From the IMG/VR virus record IMGVR_UViG_3300046003_003664: a stretch of DNA of 20,000 nucleotides; one strand, 5' to 3'. Numbering within the stretch: the stretch's first letter is position 1; the number at the start of each line of letters is the position of its first letter. Below are positions 1 through 11,705 of the stretch, piece by piece. Source of the stretch: an uncultured virus (IMG/VR IMGVR_UViG_3300046003_003664) (Duplodnaviria > Heunggongvirae > Uroviricota > Caudoviricetes). Both the position numbers and the translations under genes were made by a program. Under the pieces are notes generated by a model. That model had not been told where the DNA came from. It ran no database searches and saw nothing but the letters and a program-made list of their open reading frames with translations.

Positions 1-926
1 CAACATCTGGTCAACTTTCAATTCGGTATTCACAGAAATCTATAAATGATTATTTAAATTCTGTTTTGAAAACTGATAATAAAGATTACGTCTCATATGT
101 TGACACTGACTCTAACTATGTGAATATGGCCCCACTTGTTGAAAAGATATTTGGAACTACAAAGATTACACGTGAACAAGGTGAAAAGTTCCTTGATGCA
201 GTTTCAAAGGAAAAACTAGAACCTGCCATCCAAGAGGGTTATGAAAAACTTGCATGGATGATGGGTGCATACCGTAATGCAATGTCCATGAAACGTGAAA
301 AGATTACGGACAAGACTATCTTTATTGCCAAGAAGCGCTATATCATGAATGTTTTAAACTCTGAAGGCGTTCACTATGCAAAACCAAAAATTGCAGTTAC
401 AGGTGTTGAATCTGTTCGGTCTTCTACTCCAGAAGTCTGCCGAAATAAAATGGAAGATGCATTCAAAGTGTTCTTGAACGGAACCGAAACTGATGCACAG
501 GATTTTATTGAAGGTTTCCGTCGTGAATTTTCATCACTTCCCGCCGCAGAAGTTGCTAAGACATCTGGAACCGATGATATCGGCAAATTCATGGACAAGC
601 AAGGTTGGTATACAAAAGGTTGTCCAATTCACGTCCGAGGCGCGATACTTTACAATAAGTATCTTTCCGATAAAGATCTAAATAACAAATATGAAACAAT
701 CAGATCAGGTGATAAAGTAAAATTTGTTTATTTGAAACTTCCCAACCCCGTCCGTGAAAATGTGATTGCATTTCCTGGATATCTTCCAACTGAACTCGGT
801 ATTGACCGATATGTGGATTATGACACACAATTCGATAAGGTATTCTTGAAACCTCTCGAAATCGTGCTGCATGCAATGGGTTGGACTTCCAAAAAAGTTG
901 ACACGCTTGAAAGTTTTTTTGGTTGA
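1..926 (+). CDS. gp43: Family B DNA polymerase (T4 gp43-like), C-terminal part; the gene begins before the window
   Basis: Frame is open from position 3 (TSGQLSIRY...). Contains YVDTDSNY (motif C), KKRY, G-ESVRSSTP, PIHVRG and GDKVKFVYLK-PNP. C-terminus TLESFFG resembles a clamp-binding motif. Confidence 0.97.
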   Translation, partial: TSGQLSIRYSQKSINDYLNSVLKTDNKDYVSYVDTDSNYVNMAPLVEKIFGTTKITREQGEKFLDAVSKEKLEPAIQEGYEKLAWMMGAYRNAMSMKREKITDKTIFIAKKRYIMNVLNSEGVHYAKPKIAVTGVESVRSSTPEVCRNKMEDAFKVFLNGTETDAQDFIEGFRREFSSLPAAEVAKTSGTDDIGKFMDKQGWYTKGCPIHVRGAILYNKYLSDKDLNNKYETIRSGDKVKFVYLKLPNPVRENVIAFPGYLPTELGIDRYVDYDTQFDKVFLKPLEIVLHAMGWTSKKVDTLESFFG

Positions 927-981: not shown

Positions 982-1299
982 ATGAAAGAACAAGTCAGGG
1001 ATACTTCAAAAGACTATGATGATATGGTCGATTATGTAGCCGAAGAAAATATCAATAAAGGATCATTAAATGAGTTTCTTGGTGAAACACCAAAAGAATA
1101 TAAACCAGAAGTCAAGAAAAAAGAACGTGATAATGAATTTCCAGAAGATTGGCAGAGACTAATGGTAAACTTTCATTCCGAAAAAGACTATATTGAGTTT
1201 ATGAACAAAATCGGAAGTAAACCTGTTCCGAAATTAAAGGGGTTTATCTATGAAACACCAGGTGAAAAATCAGCATTTTCTGACTTCTTTGGAGATTAA
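982..1299 (+). CDS. Small acidic hypothetical protein, paralog of the next ORF
   Basis: AGGAG RBS at 971-975; 105 aa; W-x6-F-x4-D-x3-F-x4-G pattern shared with 1302-1625; ends FSDFFGD. Confidence 0.8.
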   Translation: MKEQVRDTSKDYDDMVDYVAEENINKGSLNEFLGETPKEYKPEVKKKERDNEFPEDWQRLMVNFHSEKDYIEFMNKIGSKPVPKLKGFIYETPGEKSAFSDFFGD

Positions 1300-1301
1300 A
1301 T

Positions 1302-1625
1302 ATGAGCACATTAATTGAAATTAATACAGTAGAAGAATTACAAAATCACTGGCGCGATCATTATCTTCAATGGTGGGCTGCAGGCATGCCGAGTTTTAGA
1401 CAACCATCCAAAGACCCGTGGAAACAAATTGTAATTAAATTTAAGAATAAAGAAGATCGTGAACATTTTGGACAATTATTCGGATACAAATTGACAGATC
1501 GAACTGATGTGGTATCATATCCAGATAGACCGCGCGATCCAAATATGATGAGTCGATATGTTGAAGAAGGATATGAACAAGATAAAATTGAAGGAATTAG
1601 TGAAGATGACGACACAGATGAATGA
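1302..1625 (+). CDS. Small hypothetical protein associated with the downstream glycosyltransferase
   Basis: GGAG RBS; 107 aa; WxxxGMPxFxQ and F-x4-D-x3-F motifs; overlaps the start of the GT gene. Confidence 0.8.
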   Translation: MSTLIEINTVEELQNHWRDHYLQWWAAGMPSFRQPSKDPWKQIVIKFKNKEDREHFGQLFGYKLTDRTDVVSYPDRPRDPNMMSRYVEEGYEQDKIEGISEDDDTDE

Positions 1626-2562
1626 TAATCCTCGATACCCCATCTATGTGATATCGAAAGGCCGCTGGGAATCAAGACACACAGCAAGAACTCTGGACAA
1701 GATGGGTGTTCCGTATTATCTTGCTGTTGAACCACAAGAATATGATAACTATGTAAATGCAGTGGGCAAAGAAAAAGTTTTGGCTCTACCTTTCAGCAAC
1801 CATGGGCTAGGTTCTGGACCTGCTAGAAATTGGTGTTGGGAACATTCAAAGGCAACTGGTTTCAAGCGGCATTGGCTTATGGATGATAATATGCTCGACT
1901 TCTATCGTCTACATAATAACAAGCGTTACCGCGTAGATAAAGGTTCCGCAATTTTCCGTGCCGCAGAAGATTTTGTTGATCGGTTTGAAAATATTGCACT
2001 TTCAGGTTTTCAATACAAATTCTTTGCAATTGATGATTGTGCATACCCTCCATATATTTTAAATACACGCATAATGTCTTGTTTCCTTATTGATAATGAC
2101 TGCCCTGTAATGTGGCGCGGTAAGTATAATGAAGACGTTGATCTTTCAATTAGAGTTTTGAAAGAAGGTCTTTGCACTATGTTATTCTATTCGTTCCTTT
2201 GTGGGAAACTCCGGACTGGTACGGTTAAAGGTGGTAATACTACCGAAATCTATAACAACTATCAGGAAGATGCATCATATAATAAGTCCAAGATGCTTTA
2301 TGAAATGCATCCAGACTGTGTTGAACTTGTAGAAAAATATGGTAGAGCACACCACCATGTAAACCTTGATAAAATCATAAATAAGTTCGGCCAACCTGCT
2401 AGACAAAATGTTCCAATCTTGAAAAAAGATGTTGACATAGTCAATAAAGTAGATAATTATGGTATGGAATTATACCGTAACTATGGGTCAAATAACACAT
2501 TTTCAGATCCTACATTCAGTTTAAATGAATACCCCAAGGGGAGACTTTCTAATCATGCATAA
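1606..2562 (+). CDS. GT-A fold glycosyltransferase, GREB1/TET-associated (TAGT)-like phage family; candidate DNA-base glycosyltransferase
   Basis: [35 protein letters not shown] (metal-binding acidic pair), [20 protein letters not shown]. Start is more likely ATG 1606 (AAGGA upstream) or 1618 than the track's 1558. Confidence 0.75.
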
Positions 2563-3412
2563 TATTCTTGTCACAGGTGGTGCTGGTTTTGTCGGCAGCC
2601 ACCTGTGTGAACGTCTTGTATCACTGGGGCATAATGTTACATCACTTGATAATTATTTTACTGGCTCAAGTGATAATCATATTTCGGGTGTAACTTATAT
2701 TAACGGAAGTACTGAAGATATACTGTCTTTACTTTACAGTGAAACTTTTGAATATGTTTATCACCTTGGTGAATATTCACGAGTAGAACAATCATTTGAT
2801 GATATGGAACTTGTATGGAATTTTAATAAAGTAGGAACATATGAAGTTCTTAAATATGTAAAACAATGTAATGCAAAATTAATTTATGCTGGTTCATCAA
2901 CCAAATTTGCAAAAGTTGATGTTATAAGTCCATATCAATGGTCGAAAGCATCCAATACAGATTTTGTAAATCAATATTGTTCATGGCATTCTATTGACTA
3001 TGCTATTACGTATTTCTATAATGTTTATGGTAAACGTGAAATCAAAGACGGAAAATATGCTACACTTATTGCTAAATACAAGTCATTAATGAAACAAGGC
3101 AAAAAACTTCCTATTGTAATGCCAGGTATCCAACAGAGAAATTTTACACACATTGATGATATTGTCGATGCTTTAATTCTTGTTGGTTTCGGTGGACAAG
3201 GCGACGAATACGGTATTGGAAATCCAAATTCGTATTCAATTCAAGAAGTTGCCGAAATGTTTGGTGGTGAAATTGAATATTTACCAGAACGAAAAGGTAA
3301 TCGCCTAAGTGCAGAGGTTAAGAGTGAAAAAACTATAGAATTGGGGTGGAAACCTCAGAAAGAATTAACTAAATATATCGAATTGTTAAAATATAATGGA
3401 TGGTGTGACTAA
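2555..3412 (+). CDS. NAD-dependent nucleotide-sugar epimerase/dehydratase/decarboxylase (extended SDR)
   Basis: [14 protein letters not shown]ossmann motif, LDNYFTG, YQWSK (YxxxK), [24 protein letters not shown] precedes ATG 2555. Confidence 0.93.
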
Positions 3413-3413
3413 T

Positions 3414-4259
3414 ATGAAAAAGTTAAGAATGGCTATTGTGGGGCACGGGTTTGTCGGTGCAGCAGTAGATTATGGGTTTCCGAATGGTAACTGTAATAAA
3501 ACAATCATTGATCCGAAATATGGAACTCAAGTCTCTGATTTAATGGAATCTGATGTTGAAGTGTCATTTGTTTGTGTTCCAACTCCGATGGGGCAAGATG
3601 CAAGCATTGATGCTTCAATTCTAGTTTCTACTGTAACTGATTTGCTTGCATACACGTCTGGTATGATTGTGATTAAATCAACAGTCATTCCGAGTATTGT
3701 CGGTGAACTTGCAAAAGATCCAAGAGTCATTTACAATCCAGAATTTTTGACCGAAAAGTCTGCAAATGAAGATTTTGTCAATCCGATCATGCACGTGTTC
3801 GGTGGAGATTCTGAACAAACAGAAAAACTTGAAAAGATCTACACTAGATATAGTGCATGTAAACCATGTGCTGTTTACCACATGACCGCCGAAGAAGCAA
3901 GTTTTGTCAAATATGGTATGAATTCATTTTTAATGACAAAGGTATTATTTTTCAACCAACTTTTTGATTTAATTGAAAAGAACGGTTCTAATTTTAGTAT
4001 TATACAAAAGGCAATCACTACGGATCCTAGGATAGGCAGTTCACATACTATGGTACCTGGACATGACGGTCGCAAAGGTGCCGCGGGGGCATGTTTTGCA
4101 AAAGACGGACCTGCATTTGTTATGTATGCAAAAAAAGAAAAAAACCACTTTACTATATTAGAAGAAGTTATAAGAACAAATCAAAAATATAGAAATTCTT
4201 ATGGTGAGCCTCTACCAAGAGAGAAAGAACAACATATTAATTTCAATTATGATATCTGA
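3414..4259 (+). CDS. ugd: UDP-glucose/GDP-mannose dehydrogenase family protein (short form lacking the usual C-terminal domain)
   Basis: IVGHGFVG, VCVPTP, IKSTVIP, YNPEFL, VKYGMNSFL, DPRIG, GAAGACFAKD (catalytic Cys motif). Confidence 0.9.
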   Translation: MKKLRMAIVGHGFVGAAVDYGFPNGNCNKTIIDPKYGTQVSDLMESDVEVSFVCVPTPMGQDASIDASILVSTVTDLLAYTSGMIVIKSTVIPSIVGELAKDPRVIYNPEFLTEKSANEDFVNPIMHVFGGDSEQTEKLEKIYTRYSACKPCAVYHMTAEEASFVKYGMNSFLMTKVLFFNQLFDLIEKNGSNFSIIQKAITTDPRIGSSHTMVPGHDGRKGAAGACFAKDGPAFVMYAKKEKNHFTILEEVIRTNQKYRNSYGEPLPREKEQHINFNYDI

Positions 4260-5281
4260 TCTTTCGCAATTACGGAAAAACCTATTTCTCTATAGGTTTT
4301 TCCCACTATATTATTAAAAAAATTAGTTTGCAAGAAAATACTATTCCTATAAACTCTCAATGATATTTTTCTATCACATTTTATGCACCATGTTTTCATT
4401 TTTTCACGAGAAATACCCATATCTATTAAACTTGATGCAGAATCAAATATTCCTATGGGTGTTGAATAAAAATACTTATGTTTATGATGATTTATCCCAG
4501 ACATTTTTTCGGAAATTTTATCTTTAGTTTCATTTGATACTATTTTTCCTTTCTGTGATTTAGACATTTTTTCTCTAGTTTCATCAGACCTTTTTAGACC
4601 AAGTTGCCCCTTTCCTATATTTTCTTTATGAGTTTCCGAAAGTAATCTGCCTGTTAATGCTTTCCTAACTTTTTCTGTGTGCTCACTGCTTTTCTTTTTA
4701 CCTCGTAAACCAGAGGATATATTATTTTTATGAGCTGTTGTTTTGCGTACTCCTTTACTTGTATTTGAAATTTTGTGTTTATGATCATCCTTTAATGATA
4801 TACCTTTTAAAATTGGAATATAATTGCCGTTTAGATAATTGTGATCGTCTATATTTGATTTAAAATATATCTCTGGATTATTTTTGTCATATACAACAAC
4901 TTTATTTTTGTTTCTTTTAGAAATATTTGTTACTGCTTCTACTCTAAGTTTATCGTAAATTCTGGAGTTCATAAATGTTTTTCTCCTGCATTTCATACCC
5001 CATATTGCATCTACACAAGAATAACTTTTTGGATAAGCTTTCCAAAGTAATAAGTGTGCAATAAAATGTTGGCGATGTGTTAAAAATGCTTTATTCCAAG
5101 GATAAATTAAAAATGATTTATATTCTGGAAACATGTCATTTGCTTTCGGGCAAATATGGTGTTTTTCAATATTACCATTATAATTAGTATTTTTAAGTTG
5201 ACATTTTTGAATAAATGTTATATACTTATTCAAATAATGTGAATTGTGCGGCTTACTTGCCAAAATGGAATAAATATCCAT
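4247..5281 (-). mobile_element. Free-standing HNH homing endonuclease with NUMOD3-type DNA-binding repeats
   Basis: EKHHICPK...N...LTHRQHFIAHLLL nuclease motif, followed by repeated basic units (HKHKISNTSKG, HKNNISSGLRG, SEHTEKVRKALTG, SETHKENIGKG, SDETREKMSKSQKG, SNETKDKISEKMSG). Antisense to its neighbours, very AT-rich, AAGGA RBS. Confidence 0.88.
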
Positions 5282-5346
5282 GCTGCGTTCCTTTTAAAAT
5301 TATCAACGTAGAGTAGATGGGACTGGTACTCCGTGATCTACACTAT

Positions 5347-5354
5347 TATTTATA
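5347..5354 (-). promoter_or_regulatory. T4-type late promoter driving the homing endonuclease
   Basis: TATTTATA on + is TATAAATA on -, about 65 nt upstream of the endonuclease ATG. Confidence 0.75.
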
Positions 5355-5399
5355 AAGTTGTTTACCTAAAGACAAATATATCATGAGTGAGGTTTGACT

Positions 5400-5726
5400 A
5401 TGACATCTGAAAATTTCAATAACTTAACACCAGCAGAAACAGAACGGCTTGCTATGCTTGCCGAAGAGTGCGCAGAAGTAATCCAAGTAGTAGGAAAAAT
5501 ACTTCGGCATGGCTATGACAGTAGTAATCCTACAATACCGAAAGAACACGGTGTTTTTATTCCTACCAACTTTGGTGATCTCATCAAAGAGTTAAGAGAC
5601 ATACAAGGTGTTATCTATGGCATGGTTCAAGCACGTGACTTGCCACGTGACTTTCTTGAAAATGAAGAACCAGAAAATGTATGGCAAAAGAAACTAAAAT
5701 GGACTCACCACCAGGATAAAAATTAA
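5400..5726 (+). CDS. MazG-like all-alpha NTP pyrophosphohydrolase
   Basis: LAEECAEVIQVVGKILRHG ... LIKELRDI (ExxE...ExxD). GAGG RBS precedes ATG 5400. Confidence 0.75.
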   Translation: MTSENFNNLTPAETERLAMLAEECAEVIQVVGKILRHGYDSSNPTIPKEHGVFIPTNFGDLIKELRDIQGVIYGMVQARDLPRDFLENEEPENVWQKKLKWTHHQDKN

Positions 5727-6217
5727 TGCCAAAAGTTAATTCAAAATGGGATGCTCGGTTCATGAAATTAGCCCGAGAAATTTCAACATGGTCTAAAGAT
5801 CCAAGCTCAAAGATTGGTGCAGTCATTGTCAATGACGAGCGCAGAATACTTGCCACTGGTTACAACGGGTTTCCAAAAGGTATTGAAGATACCGAAGAGA
5901 GATTAAATGACCGTGAACAAAAGTATCCTAGAATTGTGCACGCAGAAATGAACTCATTGATGCATGCGCTACACAGTGGTGTGTCGGTAAAAGGTGCTAC
6001 AATTTATGTTTATGGACTTCCAGTCTGCCCTGAATGTACAAAATCTATAATTCAAGCTGGTATTAAAAGAGTTGTCATGTCACCAGATCCATATGTCTAT
6101 ATCACACCATGGACAGAAAAGTGGGATAAAGTTTCAAAACAAATGATTGTAGAAGTCGGTGACATTGGCATTACATATACAAATTCAGATAAATTGGATT
6201 GGACAGTGAATGGCTAA
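5726..6217 (+). CDS. cd: dCMP deaminase
   Basis: SKDPSSKIGAVIV, GYNGFP, HAEMN and PVCPEC zinc-deaminase motifs. Confidence 0.93.
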   Translation: MPKVNSKWDARFMKLAREISTWSKDPSSKIGAVIVNDERRILATGYNGFPKGIEDTEERLNDREQKYPRIVHAEMNSLMHALHSGVSVKGATIYVYGLPVCPECTKSIIQAGIKRVVMSPDPYVYITPWTEKWDKVSKQMIVEVGDIGITYTNSDKLDWTVNG

Positions 6218-6857
6218 AAATCTCAAAGATATATACGTCGGTGTGAAAAAAGATGATGAAAATCGGAATGAAAATGATCTTTATCCAACACCGCCAATAG
6301 CAACATATATACTTCAGAAATATGTTGATTTACCGAAGAATATTATTGAACCATGTGCTGGGCGCGGTAATATTTCTATTGAACTAATTCGGAATGGGTT
6401 TAATGTTAAATCATTCGATATGCACGAATATCCAGATCAATTATGTTCTATTCAAACTGGACAAGATGTTTTAACTCTTCCAAAACAAGTTGATTATGAT
6501 GCTTTTGTGACAAATCCACCATATTTTCAGGATTTACCTCGTAAAATAGCAGAAAAGGGTGTGTCCGAATATGCAGTGACCGCTTTATTTGTTCGTTTGA
6601 CATATCTAGAAGGCAAAAAACGAAATAAACTATTTACAAAAAATGTTCCAAGTGATATAATTATCCTCTCGGATCGTATTAGATTTGGAGCCGGGTATCC
6701 TGAAGCTATAAATAAAAATGAGCAACTTGGCGGTATGATTGCATATATGTGGATTATTTGGGATAAACGGAAAGATAATTCATCTACAAAACTTCGTTGG
6801 GTTCTTTTAGAAGATGAATATGATGAATGGAGACAACATTATGAGGATACTAAATGA
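6210..6857 (+). CDS. DNA amino-methyltransferase (N6-adenine or N4-cytosine)
   Basis: DLYPTP, IIEPCAGRGNI (SAM-binding motif I), VTNPPY (catalytic motif IV), RIRF, YMWIIWDK. Confidence 0.85.
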   Translation: MAKNLKDIYVGVKKDDENRNENDLYPTPPIATYILQKYVDLPKNIIEPCAGRGNISIELIRNGFNVKSFDMHEYPDQLCSIQTGQDVLTLPKQVDYDAFVTNPPYFQDLPRKIAEKGVSEYAVTALFVRLTYLEGKKRNKLFTKNVPSDIIILSDRIRFGAGYPEAINKNEQLGGMIAYMWIIWDKRKDNSSTKLRWVLLEDEYDEWRQHYEDTK

Positions 6858-7927
6858 CTAAAATTGTAATGCCTTTCTTAATGAATGATGAAAACGATTT
6901 AGATTCACCAAGAGTTTCTGGCGGACTAGAACGATTCTCGCAGTTTATTTACAAATATGCAAATGCGGAAGTAATTCCGTTCTATTATAACCGAGATGAT
7001 CGCAAAAATAGAACTGTAACGCCAAAGTTACTTGCATTTATACATAACCATAAACCTGACCTTGTTATTTCAAATCAAGATTCGGGAACTATTACAACTA
7101 ATATCCAAAAAATGGTTGATGTACCTATGATGTGGATATCACATACAGCATCTGGTGGTATTTTTAAAATCCCTCAACTTGATATGATGAAAGAGTTTGT
7201 CGACAACGGTGGTACTCTTGCTATGGTTAGTCAATGGCAATATGATGGTATGAATGATCTGTCCAAGAGAGTTCGGAGCAGAGAACTTGAATTAAATGGT
7301 GGTCTAATTAATTCTGCATTCTGCAATGGAGATGAACAAGTTTCTATGCAGATTGATTATGATTGTGTCACCATTGGCAGAGTTGACAAGGAAAAAGATC
7401 CATTTCTTTTACATAAACTTGCAGGTAAGAGTGACTTGAAATCATTGGTTCTTACCTCTGCGTATGAATTACTTCCAGTTCAACAAGAATACCTTGACAA
7501 GAATAACCATTGGGAAAGCCCAAAGGAAACCATGTTTAATCTAAAACACGTCGAAGTTATGGATCACCTATCAAGATCTGGTGTTTATCTTTCCACTTGT
7601 GCCAGAGAGACCTGGGGTATTACTGCACTTGAAGCATTTGCTCGTGGTGTACCAGTAGTTTTATTCAGAATTGGCGCTAATAAAAACAAACACGCTTCTG
7701 AGGATATTGCACCAGGACCAGAGTATTTTGAAGCAATGACTAATAAAACTGAGAAGGACTTCAAATTAGCAGTTGACAAATTACTAAAAGTTGATAGAAT
7801 GGAACTATCACAAAAGACCAAAGAGAAACATTCCAAAGAAAATTGGGTGCAAACTCTTAATAATCTTATTGATAAAGCAATCGAAAATAAAAAGCAACAT
7901 CAGAAACCTGTATCATGGTTTGATTAA
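6854..7927 (+). CDS. GT-B fold glycosyltransferase (GT4-like)
   Basis: N-terminal SGGLERF, IGRVDKEKDP, ETWGITALEAFARGVPVV (E-x7-E motif). Confidence 0.88.
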   Translation: MTKIVMPFLMNDENDLDSPRVSGGLERFSQFIYKYANAEVIPFYYNRDDRKNRTVTPKLLAFIHNHKPDLVISNQDSGTITTNIQKMVDVPMMWISHTASGGIFKIPQLDMMKEFVDNGGTLAMVSQWQYDGMNDLSKRVRSRELELNGGLINSAFCNGDEQVSMQIDYDCVTIGRVDKEKDPFLLHKLAGKSDLKSLVLTSAYELLPVQQEYLDKNNHWESPKETMFNLKHVEVMDHLSRSGVYLSTCARETWGITALEAFARGVPVVLFRIGANKNKHASEDIAPGPEYFEAMTNKTEKDFKLAVDKLLKVDRMELSQKTKEKHSKENWVQTLNNLIDKAIENKKQHQKPVSWFD

Positions 7928-7938
7928 GAAAGTATATT

Positions 7939-8574
7939 ATGAAATTAATCTTTATAGATTTTGAAACAATGGGCGATGATGTGCTCGAACCTTGTGCCGC
8001 AGTAGACATGGCTATACTTGTCGCCGATACGGATAAAATGTTGTCTGACAATCCTTATTCTTGTAGAGACGTTACCCTTTCAAAGAAGTTTAAATTGTCA
8101 GTGAAAGATCAAGTCACGAATTATGGGTTTATTGTCCAAGATACTGCGCTTAAATTTTGGCAAGAAGTATCACCAGAAGCTCGTAAACATGTCAAACCTT
8201 CCCCCGATGATCTTACCGTAGATCAGTTTATCAATCAACTGATTACACATATGAATACAATTGGTAAGTTTGACTATTGGTTCTCACGTGGTAATACTTT
8301 TGATCCAATTATTCTCCAAAGACTATTTAAAGTAGTTGGCAAAACTTACACCTTTAAGGAATATTTCCGATTTAATAGAGTGCAAGATATGCGAACTCAT
8401 ATTAATGCTAAATTGAATAATCCCGTTACTACAAATATTACCCCAATCCAAGACGAAGAATTTTGGAAATCAGTTTTTGTAGAGCACGACAGCGCGTGGG
8501 ATATTCTTGCCGATATGCTGCGGTATCAAACAATCCTTAGACTAGAAAATGATTTAGAACAACCGAAAAGGTGA
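7939..8574 (+). CDS. dexA: DexA-like 3'-5' exonuclease (DEDD)
   Basis: IFIDFETMG, WFSRGNTFDPIIL, QDMRT, HDSAWDILAD. Confidence 0.85.
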   Translation: MKLIFIDFETMGDDVLEPCAAVDMAILVADTDKMLSDNPYSCRDVTLSKKFKLSVKDQVTNYGFIVQDTALKFWQEVSPEARKHVKPSPDDLTVDQFINQLITHMNTIGKFDYWFSRGNTFDPIILQRLFKVVGKTYTFKEYFRFNRVQDMRTHINAKLNNPVTTNITPIQDEEFWKSVFVEHDSAWDILADMLRYQTILRLENDLEQPKR

Positions 8575-8577
8575 TAA

Positions 8578-9444
8578 ATGAAACTTGAAATAACTACAGA
8601 AGACTTACGAAAGTATTCCATATTCCTCGGCACTCCTATGTATGGAGGTAATTGCGCAGGTCTTTTTTGTAAATCTACAAATGATCTTTTTAAACTTTGT
8701 GCTACACATGGAATTGAGGTTAAAGAATATTTTCTTTTTAACGAGAGTTTAGTTCAACGTGCAAGAAATTATGTTGTTGATGAATTTTTGCGATCAGATT
8801 GTACACATTTGATGTTTGTTGATGCTGATATTGGATTTAATCCTAAAGATGTATTAATGCTATTAGCACTGCAAATATCAGATCCGGTAAAATATCAGAT
8901 TGTTACTGGTCCATATCCTAAGAAAACAATTGCATGGGAAAAAGTAAAATCTGCTGTTAAAAATGGCAAAGCAGAAAATCCTTCCGATCTTGCCTTTTAT
9001 TCTGCAGATTATGTATTTAATCCTGCAAGAGAAGTTCAATCATTTAAAATTGACGAGCCAGTTGAAGTTGCCGAAGGTGGTACTGGGTTTATGCTTATTC
9101 CTAGAACTGTGCTAGAAAAATATTCTGCAGCATATCCAGAGTATAGTTATAAACCAGACCATGTAAGATCTGAAAATTTTAACGGTGATAGAGAAATCAC
9201 TGCATTCTTTGATTGTGGAATTGATCCAGAAACAAAGCGGTATCTATCTGAGGATTATTTCTTCTGTAAAAATGCTCGTAAGATAGGTATTACAATTCAT
9301 ATGTGTCCATGGATGCAATTACAACATGTTGGAACTTATGTCTTCCGCGGCTCGATGGCAGCAATCGCATCTATTGGAGCGTCTCCTACAGCAGGAGCCG
9401 ATGCAAAAGCAAAGAAAAAGAATAAATTAGGGACAAGACCATGA
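8578..9444 (+). CDS. GT-A fold (GT2-like) glycosyltransferase of the type found in T4-like phages
   Basis: LGTPMYGG, ESLVQRARN, THLMFVDADIGF (DxD), GPYPKK, GTGFMLI, YLSEDYFFC, LQHVG. Confidence 0.82.
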   Translation: MKLEITTEDLRKYSIFLGTPMYGGNCAGLFCKSTNDLFKLCATHGIEVKEYFLFNESLVQRARNYVVDEFLRSDCTHLMFVDADIGFNPKDVLMLLALQISDPVKYQIVTGPYPKKTIAWEKVKSAVKNGKAENPSDLAFYSADYVFNPAREVQSFKIDEPVEVAEGGTGFMLIPRTVLEKYSAAYPEYSYKPDHVRSENFNGDREITAFFDCGIDPETKRYLSEDYFFCKNARKIGITIHMCPWMQLQHVGTYVFRGSMAAIASIGASPTAGADAKAKKKNKLGTRP

Positions 9445-9785
9445 CAGACTCATTTTTGACACAACTACGACAAAAGAATAATCAGCGCCAGACTATGTGG
9501 ACTGGCGCTGAAAATGTTGATATTTTATTTCGAGCAGTAGAATTTGCTGGTGAAGCGGGTGAACTTGCAAATGCCGTAAAGAAAGTTTATAGAGCACGGA
9601 ATGGGATTATCGGCAATAACAAAGACATTAATGATCTTATGGAAAATCTAGTCGAGGAAATTGGTGATGTTCTCATCACTATCGACTTGCTTGCAAATGA
9701 ATTTAACATCGACCTAGAGCAAGCGGTCAAGTCAAAGTTTAACAAAACATCCGAAAAAGTCAGTATTCCAGTATTTCTGGAGTAA
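9441..9785 (+). CDS. MazG-like NTP pyrophosphohydrolase
   Basis: AGEAGELANAVKK ... LVEEIGDVLI ... IDLEQAVKSKFNK. Confidence 0.88.
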   Translation: MTDSFLTQLRQKNNQRQTMWTGAENVDILFRAVEFAGEAGELANAVKKVYRARNGIIGNNKDINDLMENLVEEIGDVLITIDLLANEFNIDLEQAVKSKFNKTSEKVSIPVFLE

Positions 9786-9819
9786 TTTTGGTTGACTTTT
9801 TCCCACATTATGATATATT
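9786..9819 (+). promoter_or_regulatory. Sigma70-like promoter for the gp45-gp44-gp62-regA operon
   Basis: TTGACT (9792-9797), 16-bp spacer, TG-n-TATATT (9811-9819); same layout as 917-950. Confidence 0.6.
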
Positions 9820-9855
9820 CAATCTATTATATGACACTCATTGAAAGGAATTACT

Positions 9856-10518
9856 ATGAAATTTTCTGAACGCACACTCACAGTTCTCAAGAATTTTGCG
9901 ACAATTAACCCATCCATTATCTTTAAACCCGGCAAACAACTGCGCACTATCAGTCCACAAAAGACTGTAATGGCTATTGCAAATATTGAGGACGAGATTC
10001 CTTCAGAAGCCTGTGTTTATGACATGTCTCGTTTCCTATCTACTTATGGACTATTCGGTGAACCAGATGTTCAATTTGAAAGTAATCATTTCACGATGGC
10101 TCAAGGTAAAACAAAGACCCGATATTACTTTGCTGACAAATCTATGATTATCGCCCCGCCAGAAAAAGAAATCACTATTCCATCCAATGATGTTGAAGTT
10201 GAAATTGACTGGAATGATCTTCAATCTGTAATTAAAGCTGCTGGTGTTCTTCAACTACCAGAAGTTGCATTCGTTGGTGATGGCGATACTTGTTCACTGA
10301 AGGCAATCGACTCAAATAATACAACTGCTGATACTTTCGGTGTGGAACTTGGTTCCACTGGTGATAAATTTCAATTGATTATCAAGACTGAAAATCTGAA
10401 ACTAATTCCGCAGAAGTATAAGGTTACACTATGCTCAAAAGGTATTTCAAAGTTTGTATGTGATCAAGTTACATACTTCATTGCTATTGAATCCAAATCA
10501 ACATACAAGAAAGGCTAA
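9856..10518 (+). CDS. gp45: DNA polymerase sliding clamp
   Basis: MKFSERTLTVLKNFATINPSI, YDMSRFL, AAGVLQLP, ENLKLIP, YFIAIE. AAGGA RBS precedes ATG 9856; synteny with gp44 and gp62. Confidence 0.95.
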   Translation: MKFSERTLTVLKNFATINPSIIFKPGKQLRTISPQKTVMAIANIEDEIPSEACVYDMSRFLSTYGLFGEPDVQFESNHFTMAQGKTKTRYYFADKSMIIAPPEKEITIPSNDVEVEIDWNDLQSVIKAAGVLQLPEVAFVGDGDTCSLKAIDSNNTTADTFGVELGSTGDKFQLIIKTENLKLIPQKYKVTLCSKGISKFVCDQVTYFIAIESKSTYKKG

Positions 10519-10520
10519 TA

Positions 10521-10706
10521 ATGGAAACAAATATTAATTTAAGTGATATGATTACTATGGTAAATATCATTGATGCTTGCACAGAACGTGGGGCATTCAA
10601 AGGTAACGAGTTGATAACTGTAGGAACACTACGTGAAAAAATTGCAAATTTTGTTCGTGAAAATCAATCACAACAAGAACCTGTTACTAAGGAAAGTGCT
10701 GAATAA
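10521..10706 (+). CDS. Small hypothetical protein between gp45 and gp44
   Basis: 61 aa, IIDACTERGAFKGNEL; AAGG RBS; tight packing with gp45. Confidence 0.75.
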   Translation: METNINLSDMITMVNIIDACTERGAFKGNELITVGTLREKIANFVRENQSQQEPVTKESAE

Positions 10707-10715
10707 GCACTTTCC
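10691..10715 (+). other. Perfect 10-bp stem-loop overlapping the stop codon of the 61-aa ORF
   Basis: GGAAAGTGCT-GAATA-AGCACTTTCC; no U-tract follows. Confidence 0.6.
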
Positions 10716-10754
10716 CATATTCGTATTGAAATTTTTGAAAAGGAATACTATATA

Positions 10755-11705
10755 ATGTCTCTTGATGTGAAATCCGACGAACTTCTATGGGTTCAAAAGT
10801 ATCGTCCGCAAAAAGTCGATGATACAATTCTGCCTGTATTGACTAAAACTGCATTTCAGAAATTCATTAATACCAGCAACATTCCAAATCTTCTTCTTGC
10901 TGGTTCACCGGGAACTGGTAAAACAACCGCAGCAAAAGCAATGCTTGAAGAAATGGCTTGCGATTACATTATCATCAATGCTGCATTAAACCGCGGCATT
11001 GATACTGTTCGCAGTGAAATCTCAACCTTTGCATCTTCGATCTCTCTTACAGGTGGTCGCAAATACATCATCCTAGACGAAGCTGATTATCTTACTCCTG
11101 ATGCTCAAGCATCCATGCGTAACCTAATTGAAACCTTCTCTAAAAACTGTGGTTTTATCTTTACTTGTAACTTTAAAAATCGCATCATTGCTCCACTTCG
11201 TTCTCGTCTTTCTGAGGTTGACTTCGCGATTGAAAAAACCGAAAAACCAAAGCTTGCCGCACAATTTTTCAAGCGCACACTTGCAATTCTTAATTCTGAA
11301 AATGTTGACTATGAACCAAAAGTTGTGGCAAAAGTCATTGAAAAATATTTCCCAGACTTCCGCCGAATCCTAAATGAACTTCAAAAATATGCTGGTAACG
11401 GTCGTATTGATGAAGGCATCTTTGCTGACTTCAAACAAGAGTCTATTGATGAACTCTTTTTACTCTTGAAGGAGAAAAACTTCACCGGTATGCGTAAATG
11501 GTGTGCAGATAATTCTGACCAAGATGCAAATGAAATCTTCCGTAAAATCTATGACACTGCGTCTGACAAACTTGAATTGAAAAGTATGCCATCTTTTGTC
11601 GTGTCTCTTGCGGACTATATGTATAAATCTGCATTTGTCGCTGATCAAGAAATCAACCTTGTCGCTTTCCTTACTGAAATTATGATGGAAACGAGTTTCC
11701 GCTAA
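10755..11705 (+). CDS. gp44: Clamp loader large subunit (AAA+, RFC-like)
   Basis: LWVQKYRP, GSPGTGKTT (Walker A), ILDEAD (Walker B), PLRSR, FPDFRRILNELQ. Confidence 0.97.
   Translation: MSLDVKSDELLWVQKYRPQKVDDTILPVLTKTAFQKFINTSNIPNLLLAGSPGTGKTTAAKAMLEEMACDYIIINAALNRGIDTVRSEISTFASSISLTGGRKYIILDEADYLTPDAQASMRNLIETFSKNCGFIFTCNFKNRIIAPLRSRLSEVDFAIEKTEKPKLAAQFFKRTLAILNSENVDYEPKVVAKVIEKYFPDFRRILNELQKYAGNGRIDEGIFADFKQESIDELFLLLKEKNFTGMRKWCADNSDQDANEIFRKIYDTASDKLELKSMPSFVVSLADYMYKSAFVADQEINLVAFLTEIMMETSFR

Follow-up and report, generated by a model that had tools for sequence, protein, structure and literature searches.

A conserved gene module joining a TAGT-family glycosyltransferase, nucleotide-sugar genes and a predicted sliding-clamp adaptor in a T4-like phage

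Results

Genes at the locus

We analyzed a 20,000-nucleotide stretch of DNA from an uncultured virus (IMG/VR record IMGVR_UViG_3300046003_003664), referred to here as the window, which is part of a large aquatic T4-like phage. Our subject is the group of genes directly 3' of the stop codon, at position 926, of its DNA polymerase gene, gp43. A preliminary description, made from the sequence alone, had seen in this group a putative DNA hypermodification module of two small paralogs (w1 and w2), a GT-A glycosyltransferase (GT), a short-chain dehydrogenase/reductase (SDR) and a UDP-glucose dehydrogenase (UGD). The five open reading frames (ORFs) are indeed all present on the plus strand, co-oriented and abutting. 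They are listed below with the other genes of the window on which the argument depends.

66..926, plus strand: C-terminal part of the gp43 DNA polymerase (845 aa gene, start upstream of the window), ending in ...TLESFFG, the clamp-binding tail used for comparison
982..1299, plus strand: w1, 105 aa, distantly paralogous to w2 and ending in a gp43-like tail (...FSDFFGD); predicted clamp adaptor
1302..1625, plus strand: w2, 107 aa, a WxGMPxF...beta-alpha-beta domain; split-off N-terminal domain of the GT
1606..2562, plus strand: TAGT-family (PF20691) GT-A glycosyltransferase, 318 aa, with conserved SKGR, DDN and NED motifs
2555..3412, plus strand: extended SDR of type A, with HLGEYSRV and S..YxxxK motifs and without the glutamate of UDP-xylose synthase (UXS); likely a nucleotide-sugar 4-epimerase
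3414..4259, plus strand: shortened enzyme of the UGD family, 281 aa, with the Cys motif GACFAKD and no C-terminal domain
8578..9444, plus strand: second GT-A-like protein (phrog_1574), located before gp45; possible partner enzyme
9841..10518, plus strand: gp45 sliding clamp, the predicted docking site of w1

The glycosyltransferase and its N-terminal domain

The GT matches the full length of the Pfam TAGT profile (E 9.9e-46; 156.7 bits against a cut-off of 27.5) and also phrog_842 (E 1.8e-50), which bears out its earlier placement in the TAGT/GREB1-like GT-A family, a family reportedly defined by Iyer in 2013. The conserved R, DxD-like and ED motifs are present in 108-110 of 110 GTs. A Pfam match to PDDEXK_14 was weak (E 5.5e-4) and below the cut-off, and this identity was dismissed. 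The structural comparison that had been proposed as a check was made with the AlphaFold model of a fused relative (408 aa, predicted local distance difference test score (pLDDT) 88), and it recovered both the GT-A fold and the family. Against the PDB, Foldseek returned weak GT-A matches with mixed acceptors (best E 2.2e-5), among them protein and peptide glycosyltransferases as weak as all the other GT-A enzymes; against BFVD, it returned strong matches to TAGT-domain proteins. The model also matched that of the beta-glucosyl-hydroxymethylcytosine-alpha-glucosyltransferase (beta-alpha-GT) with an E of 2.9e-10 at 13% identity.

The first 70 related loci include 21 ORFs in which the w2 domain and the GT form one protein and 29 in which the domain stands alone; the fused form also occurs in phages Aeh1, 65, POP12, PTm1 and Kuja. 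Within a 25-sequence set, w2 resembles the N-terminal parts (E 2e-5 to 2e-3) of longer GTs, namely those from Aeh1, POP12, PTm1, Kuja and Vibrio phage 1.076.O, and a search of longer proteins with w2 returned just two fused GTs. Because this domain is fused to the GT in many relatives and separate in others, we identify w2 as a split-off N-terminal domain of the GT. By tblastn, w2 alone matched no cultured phage, and ESM Atlas queries with w1 and w2 led just to unnamed viral clusters.

Homologs of the GT number 7,461, and an identical copy of it lies on a contig of 192 kb. When the phage 65 protein was the query, 80 of about 595 loci were returned, and this distant set carries a w2-like unit in 72 loci, as a separate gene in 64 and fused in 8. 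No other neighbor recurs in more than 14 of the 80 loci, the neighbors having been compared without a library scan. In the distant fused GTs the small unit is doubled and nested, which fits the w1/w2 pair. At locus L076 it forms the end of a ParB-like protein whose gene precedes those of the GT and the terminase. That one fusion, ParB-like by NCBIfam (E 1.7e-4 and 6.5e-3) and without a Pfam match, was the basis for considering the small domain a ParB dimerization domain, an identity that stays hypothetical. Loci L076 (2341-3892), L077 (380-2950) and L079 (421-4234) all place a ParB-like protein and a TAGT beside terminase genes, in part together with a UXS-type SDR and a UGD; the design is that of our module, with another protein as the candidate DNA tether.

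A polymerase-like tail on w1

The paralogy claimed for w1 and w2 holds at the profile level (hhalign probability 64.8%, E 6.2e-5, 39 columns), whereas BLASTP does not detect it (E 7.5). The C-terminus of w1 resembles that of the polymerase. A hydrophobic-x-x-aromatic-hydrophobic end, a pattern chosen after the tails had been seen, is found in 22 of 23 distinct w1 tails, in 13 of 15 gp43 tails (both misses are N-terminal halves of split genes) and in 25 of 602 other tails; in the larger w1-anchored set described below, 32 of 34 distinct w1 tails have it. Under a stricter pattern, 6 of the 341 ORFs of this phage match, w1 and gp43 among them. The protein has, besides this tail, a second, internal LxxFLG-like stretch.

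The gp45-binding motif of T4 is given as LDFLF (PMC6212786), and w1 carries at its C-terminus the LxxFF/LDFLF-like motif of gp45 clamp-binding proteins. The T4 alpha-GT is reported to co-purify with gp45 (PMC13216743). Since w1 ends like the clamp-docking tail of the polymerase, the sugar would likely be placed on newly made DNA. Read from its sequence, this tail is an additional argument for DNA, beyond those that the preliminary description had at hand.

Conservation of the module

Anchoring the search on w1 gave 80 loci, many of them near-duplicate contigs. In all 80, w2 comes next after w1; the GT lies no more than 900 nt away in 73 of the 74 loci with enough sequence, and an SDR follows downstream in 64 of 64. 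The w1-w2-GT-SDR arrangement is not due to chance, and this gene order is kept across related T4-like contigs. The coupling of the GT to nucleotide-sugar genes of its own, part of the original proposal, is supported. We conclude that this is a real, conserved module and a variant of TAGT systems. A set of 55 loci, including the window and near-duplicates, extends as far as gp45: an SDR comes after the GT in all of them, and a UGD is present in 41. The module does not adjoin structural genes in this clade.

Nucleotide-sugar enzymes and the likely sugar

The UGD matches the N-terminal and central Pfam domains of its family (E 1.4e-11 and 1.8e-14), and its Cys motif and Lys/Asn helix align with those of solved UGDs; no C-terminal domain was matched in the Pfam scan, and it scores below every NCBIfam cut-off. 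Of the three domains of a UDP-glucose dehydrogenase, this shortened protein has the first two and lacks the third.

The SDR matches Pfam Epimerase (E 2.2e-34), and its slot alternates between two types that are 23-31% identical (about 26%). Type A, that of the window, occupies it in 37 of the 55 gp45-reaching loci and type B in 18; loci L015 and L016, with GTs 94% and 92% identical to that of the window, carry type B. Type B matches 5U4Q (E 7e-79) and 6ZL6 (E 7e-51), which we take to be UDP-glucuronate 4-epimerases, and it has the HLAAxAGVR and GPWGRPDM motifs of that enzyme, which type A of the window does not. Type A is closest by score to human UXS1, yet it lacks the STSE glutamate, which is catalytic in UDP-xylose synthase, and the next loop. 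As the window SDR reads SSTK at this place, we rejected a UXS identity; no NCBIfam cut-off is reached by type A either, and it is likely a nucleotide-sugar 4-epimerase.

These results separate the roles that had been left open for the SDR and its sugar. Decarboxylation is not supported, and a pentose is unlikely for this type, because the UXS glutamate is missing. A uronic acid is plausible from the UDP-glucuronate-4-epimerase-like SDR in the same slot of 18 loci. Two distant TAGT loci adjoining terminase genes have a UXS-type SDR, one of them also with a full UGD. Taken together with type B, they make UDP-glucuronate the recurring theme of the sugar supply across loci and a candidate precursor for the sugar of the window. 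Glucuronate on phage DNA, with a phage UGD, has a precedent in Bacillus phage SP-15 (PMC5977210).

Proposed mechanism

Tentatively, and with a confidence that approaches an even chance, we favor the reading that the module glycosylates DNA after replication, tethered to the clamp and supplied with uronate by genes of its own, on an acceptor that needs no known hydroxylase. In this model the polymerase-like tail of w1 would bind the gp45 sliding clamp, and w1 would also associate with w2, the N-terminal domain of the GT; tethered in this way, the TAGT would follow the replication fork and modify newly replicated phage DNA. The transferred sugar would likely derive from UDP-glucuronate by way of the adjacent dehydrogenase and epimerase, and we infer galacturonate or glucuronate as the donor sugar. 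The modification would be partial and post-replicative, because dTMP appears to be made in the canonical way and the contigs yielded no genes for base replacement. Our single best guess for the acceptor is the exocyclic amine of a canonical base, the alternative being a hydroxylated base from an unrecognized enzyme, and the purpose may be protection from host nucleases; the preliminary description had suggested a possible anti-restriction or anti-CRISPR role.

A wider claim can be made, which we consider unlikely: that the very widespread clade of TAGTs with small partners attaches a sugar straight to a canonical base of DNA, without hydroxylation beforehand, and that in these T4-like phages the enzyme rides on the clamp by means of a tailed paralog of its N-terminal domain and adds an acidic uronate, the sugar being varied by exchange of the SDR. 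If true, it would amount to a new route of DNA hypermodification and account for hundreds of solitary TAGTs, which have been noted as unexplained in 288 of 753 GT-bearing genomes (PMC13216743).

The acceptor base and other points against the proposal

A number of observations weigh against a clamp-tethered DNA glycosyltransferase. The tail pattern, besides having been defined with the tails in view, is matched by all tails of two further gene clusters (5 of 5 and 4 of 4). The UGD is absent from 14 of the 55 gp45-reaching loci, 5 of which have a type B SDR; that of the window is shortened, and its type A SDR has no assignable substrate. Most of the 80 distant loci with w2 and TAGT are in unrelated phages, without conserved sugar genes, and two other glycan clusters in this phage could use the sugars. 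In published work, the family member GREB1 is reported to glycosylate protein (PMC7968844), and GT contigs without 5mYOX or ThyS (about 65%) are deemed less likely to be DNA modifiers (Pyle et al., bioRxiv 2023.12.21.572611).

The remaining points concern the base. Glycosylated phage bases in the literature cited here, as far as those sources go, all start from a hydroxylated pyrimidine. A search of the genome for a thymidylate-synthase-like hydroxymethylase or a 2OG-Fe dioxygenase had been proposed, and we looked for a hydroxymethylase-type ThyA and a TET/JBP enzyme in overlapping contigs of the same phage (G004, 99.99-100%; G006, 100%; G011, 99.9% to G006), which amount to about 260 kb and are not closed, the remaining gap lying among tail genes. 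Library scans covered ORFs of at least 90 aa outside the structural extension in G004, and 148 ORFs of the contig set were scanned against PHROGs alone, at 1e-5.

The search was negative. The roughly 260 kb contain one ThyA (E 2.5e-103), beside DHFR; it has the Asn form, which marks dUMP-specific enzymes. dUTPase and dCMP deaminase are present, no ThyX was found in the contig set, and a divergent ThyA query had no match in this phage (best E 0.05), so that no dCMP hydroxymethylase (an Asp-type ThyA homolog) was recovered from the unclosed genome. No Tet_JBP was found in the same 260 kb, by profile search of contig records (0 of 5) and by ORF scans for G000, with a profile that had no positive control. 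The Pfam and PHROG scans, which were not made family by family, named no alpha- or beta-GT, dCTPase, denB or alc. No recognizable enzyme for a hydroxymethylcytosine (hmC), hydroxymethyluracil or hydroxycytosine (hoC) route was found in the roughly 260 kb of this phage, and since neither a hydroxymethylase nor TET/JBP was recovered there, T4-like hmC glycosylation is probably not the route.

Relatives differ in these genes. G001 (170 kb) and G005 carry ThyX instead of ThyA, and G001 has one 2OG-FeII_Oxy_3 gene. A single ThyA is present in each of phages Aeh1, 65 and POP12, and none in Vibrio phage 1.076.O; PTm1 carries a second, Asp-type ThyA homolog, which counts against a general rule. With the same uncontrolled profile, Tet_JBP was found in 0 of 5 cultured carriers and in 0 of 5 further records, three of them from the distant set. 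The divergent homolog of Tenacibaculum phage PTm1 (about 123.2-123.9 kb) adjoins an ORF that by eye is aminoglycoside-kinase-like, and PTm1 may modify cytosine.

Alternative explanations

The GT could instead glycosylate proteins of phage replication or transcription, or of the host, with the clamp tail merely localizing it. We regard this as unlikely, while acknowledging that GREB1, of the same family, O-GlcNAcylates ERalpha (PMC7968844), that no acceptor-base pathway was found in this phage and that protein and peptide glycosyltransferases are among the weak Foldseek matches. Against it, the characterized phage TAGT/GT-A enzymes in the cited literature all act on DNA (PMC13216743; Pyle et al., bioRxiv 2023.12.21.572611), and a clamp tether would be most useful for a processive DNA substrate.

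It is improbable that the GT serves, with its sugars, to make glycans of the virion or the host surface and that its position near gp43 and gp45 reflects expression timing alone. Clusters of GTs do adjoin tail-fiber and neck genes and lie near the helicase in this phage, and glycosylated virions are known from mycobacteriophages (cited in PMC12619734); however, such an explanation leaves the conserved polymerase-like tail of w1 unexplained, and the module stands apart from structural genes.

Slightly more improbable still is a second-step enzyme like the T2/T6 beta-glucosyl-hydroxymethylcytosine-alpha-glucosyltransferase, which would extend a sugar added by the phrog_1574 GT-A (8578-9444) or by a GT-B (6854-7927). 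The T2/T6 member adds glucose to glucose (PMC13216743), and the phrog_1574 gene precedes gp45 in 58 of 71 loci and is also found without a TAGT, in Cr30, phiM12, DLP6 and OC. Against this reading, the TAGT carriers Aeh1, 65, POP12 and Vibrio phage 1.076.O are absent among the phrog_1574 matches listed, and the problem of the base stays unsolved.

Ordinary hydroxypyrimidine glycosylation, by a hydroxymethylase or dioxygenase too divergent to be recognized or encoded in the unsequenced gap, is very improbable: PTm1 does combine this GT with a divergent Asp-type ThyA homolog, the Tet_JBP searches were uncontrolled and G001 has its 2OG-FeII_Oxy_3 gene, but the profile search that caught the PTm1 homolog found just one ThyA here, the gap lies among tail genes, and Table 4 of PMC2993671 lists no gene 42 for either Aeh1 or 65.

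Relation to known systems

The T2/T6 beta-glucosyl-hydroxymethylcytosine-alpha-glucosyltransferase and the gp42-alpha-GT system of T4 share with our module the Pfam family PF20691 (phrog_842), the GT-A fold and a location among replication genes, and the binding of the T4 alpha-GT to gp45 (PMC13216743) parallels the predicted clamp tether. The module differs in its low identity to the beta-alpha-GT model, in the extra small domain, the tailed adaptor and its own SDR and UGD, and in that the scans found neither gp42 nor an alpha- or beta-GT. Clusters of GT-A enzymes associated with 5mYOX/TET, like the trypanosome JGT, have R..DD..ED motifs, and epimerase and ParB-like neighbors are reported there too (Pyle et al., bioRxiv 2023.12.21.572611); here, in contrast, no TET/JBP or C5 methyltransferase was detected, and the motifs read DDN and EDV instead of DDD and EDY/F.

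Phage-encoded nucleotide-sugar supply and a non-glucose DNA sugar are also known from the arabinosyl-5-hydroxycytosine (5hoC) pathway of RB69/DLP3 and the galactosyl-5hoC pathway of RL38J1, which use GT-B-like enzymes and a ThyA-type 5hodCMP synthase in full base replacement (PMC13326640); neither enzyme was found here. The dihydroxypentyluracil (DHPU) modification of SP-15 resembles the proposal in its phage UGD, 28% identical to that of the window, and in its glucuronate on DNA, but there a cluster of ten genes makes a hypermodified uracil that bears phosphoglucuronate (PMC5977210), and SP-15 is not among the matches to the window GT. The GT domain of GREB1 was aligned by its authors with phage TAGTs and the J-base GT, whereas GREB1 is eukaryotic and cytoplasmic and its reported acceptor is protein Ser/Thr (PMC7968844).

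Neither the small domain nor the tailed adaptor is described in the literature covered, chiefly freely available main texts, and the same holds for the SDR exchange. The module makes the question of solitary TAGTs testable, as it offers a candidate tether, a sugar supply and carriers in culture (Aeh1, 65 and POP12). Either outcome would be of value: it would yield a modified base not described before or a phage TAGT that, for the first time, acts on something other than DNA.

Variant loci and other glycan genes

Some loci depart from the common arrangement. Phage C48C1 (L010), with no TAGT match anywhere in its genome, has at 7178-10924, after gp43, a Dam-like methylase ending in ...TLDAFFG, followed by an SDR of type B and a UGD in shortened form. 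Vibrio phage Kuja, with an Ackermannviridae genome, carries a tandem TAGT pair (L007, 7581-10269), and G001 has a second, divergent TAGT within the module (L085, 6301-7215). In the window, a homing endonuclease of phrog_655 (4247-5281, minus strand) is inserted after the UGD and overlaps its stop; it is not at the corresponding place in the close relatives L015 and L016.

The phrog_1574 protein may be a first-step enzyme or unrelated. It is conserved in Cr30, phiM12/M7/M19/N3, DLP6, OC and Synechococcus phage ACG-2014f, and a 1123-aa multi-GT protein in G011 ends in a phrog_1574-like domain. The window also carries, at 6210-7927, an amino-methyltransferase-like gene (phrog_799, NPPY) followed by a GT4/GT-B gene, present in 10 and 9 of 71 loci, respectively; the GT-B ends in ...VSWFD here and in ...IERFFGT in L024-L027, possibly a clamp-type tail.

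Elsewhere in this phage, about ten glycosyltransferase, methyltransferase and sugar-nucleotide genes lie between tail-fiber and neck genes (G011:C1:9138-20206; L205 and L206), a candidate virion glycosylation locus. A second glycan cluster (L196:2392-8904) has three similar short GT-like genes, a DegT-type aminotransferase, an oxidoreductase and an acetyltransferase, named by eye except for the aminotransferase, and a KDO8P-synthase-like gene (L197:8031-8813, also named by eye) is listed with it. A bilin reductase and heme-oxygenase-like pair, together with PstS-like and DUF1127-like genes (L197:2801-4037 and 5241-6203; L196:9222-9563; partly named by eye), suggests an aquatic alphaproteobacterial host.

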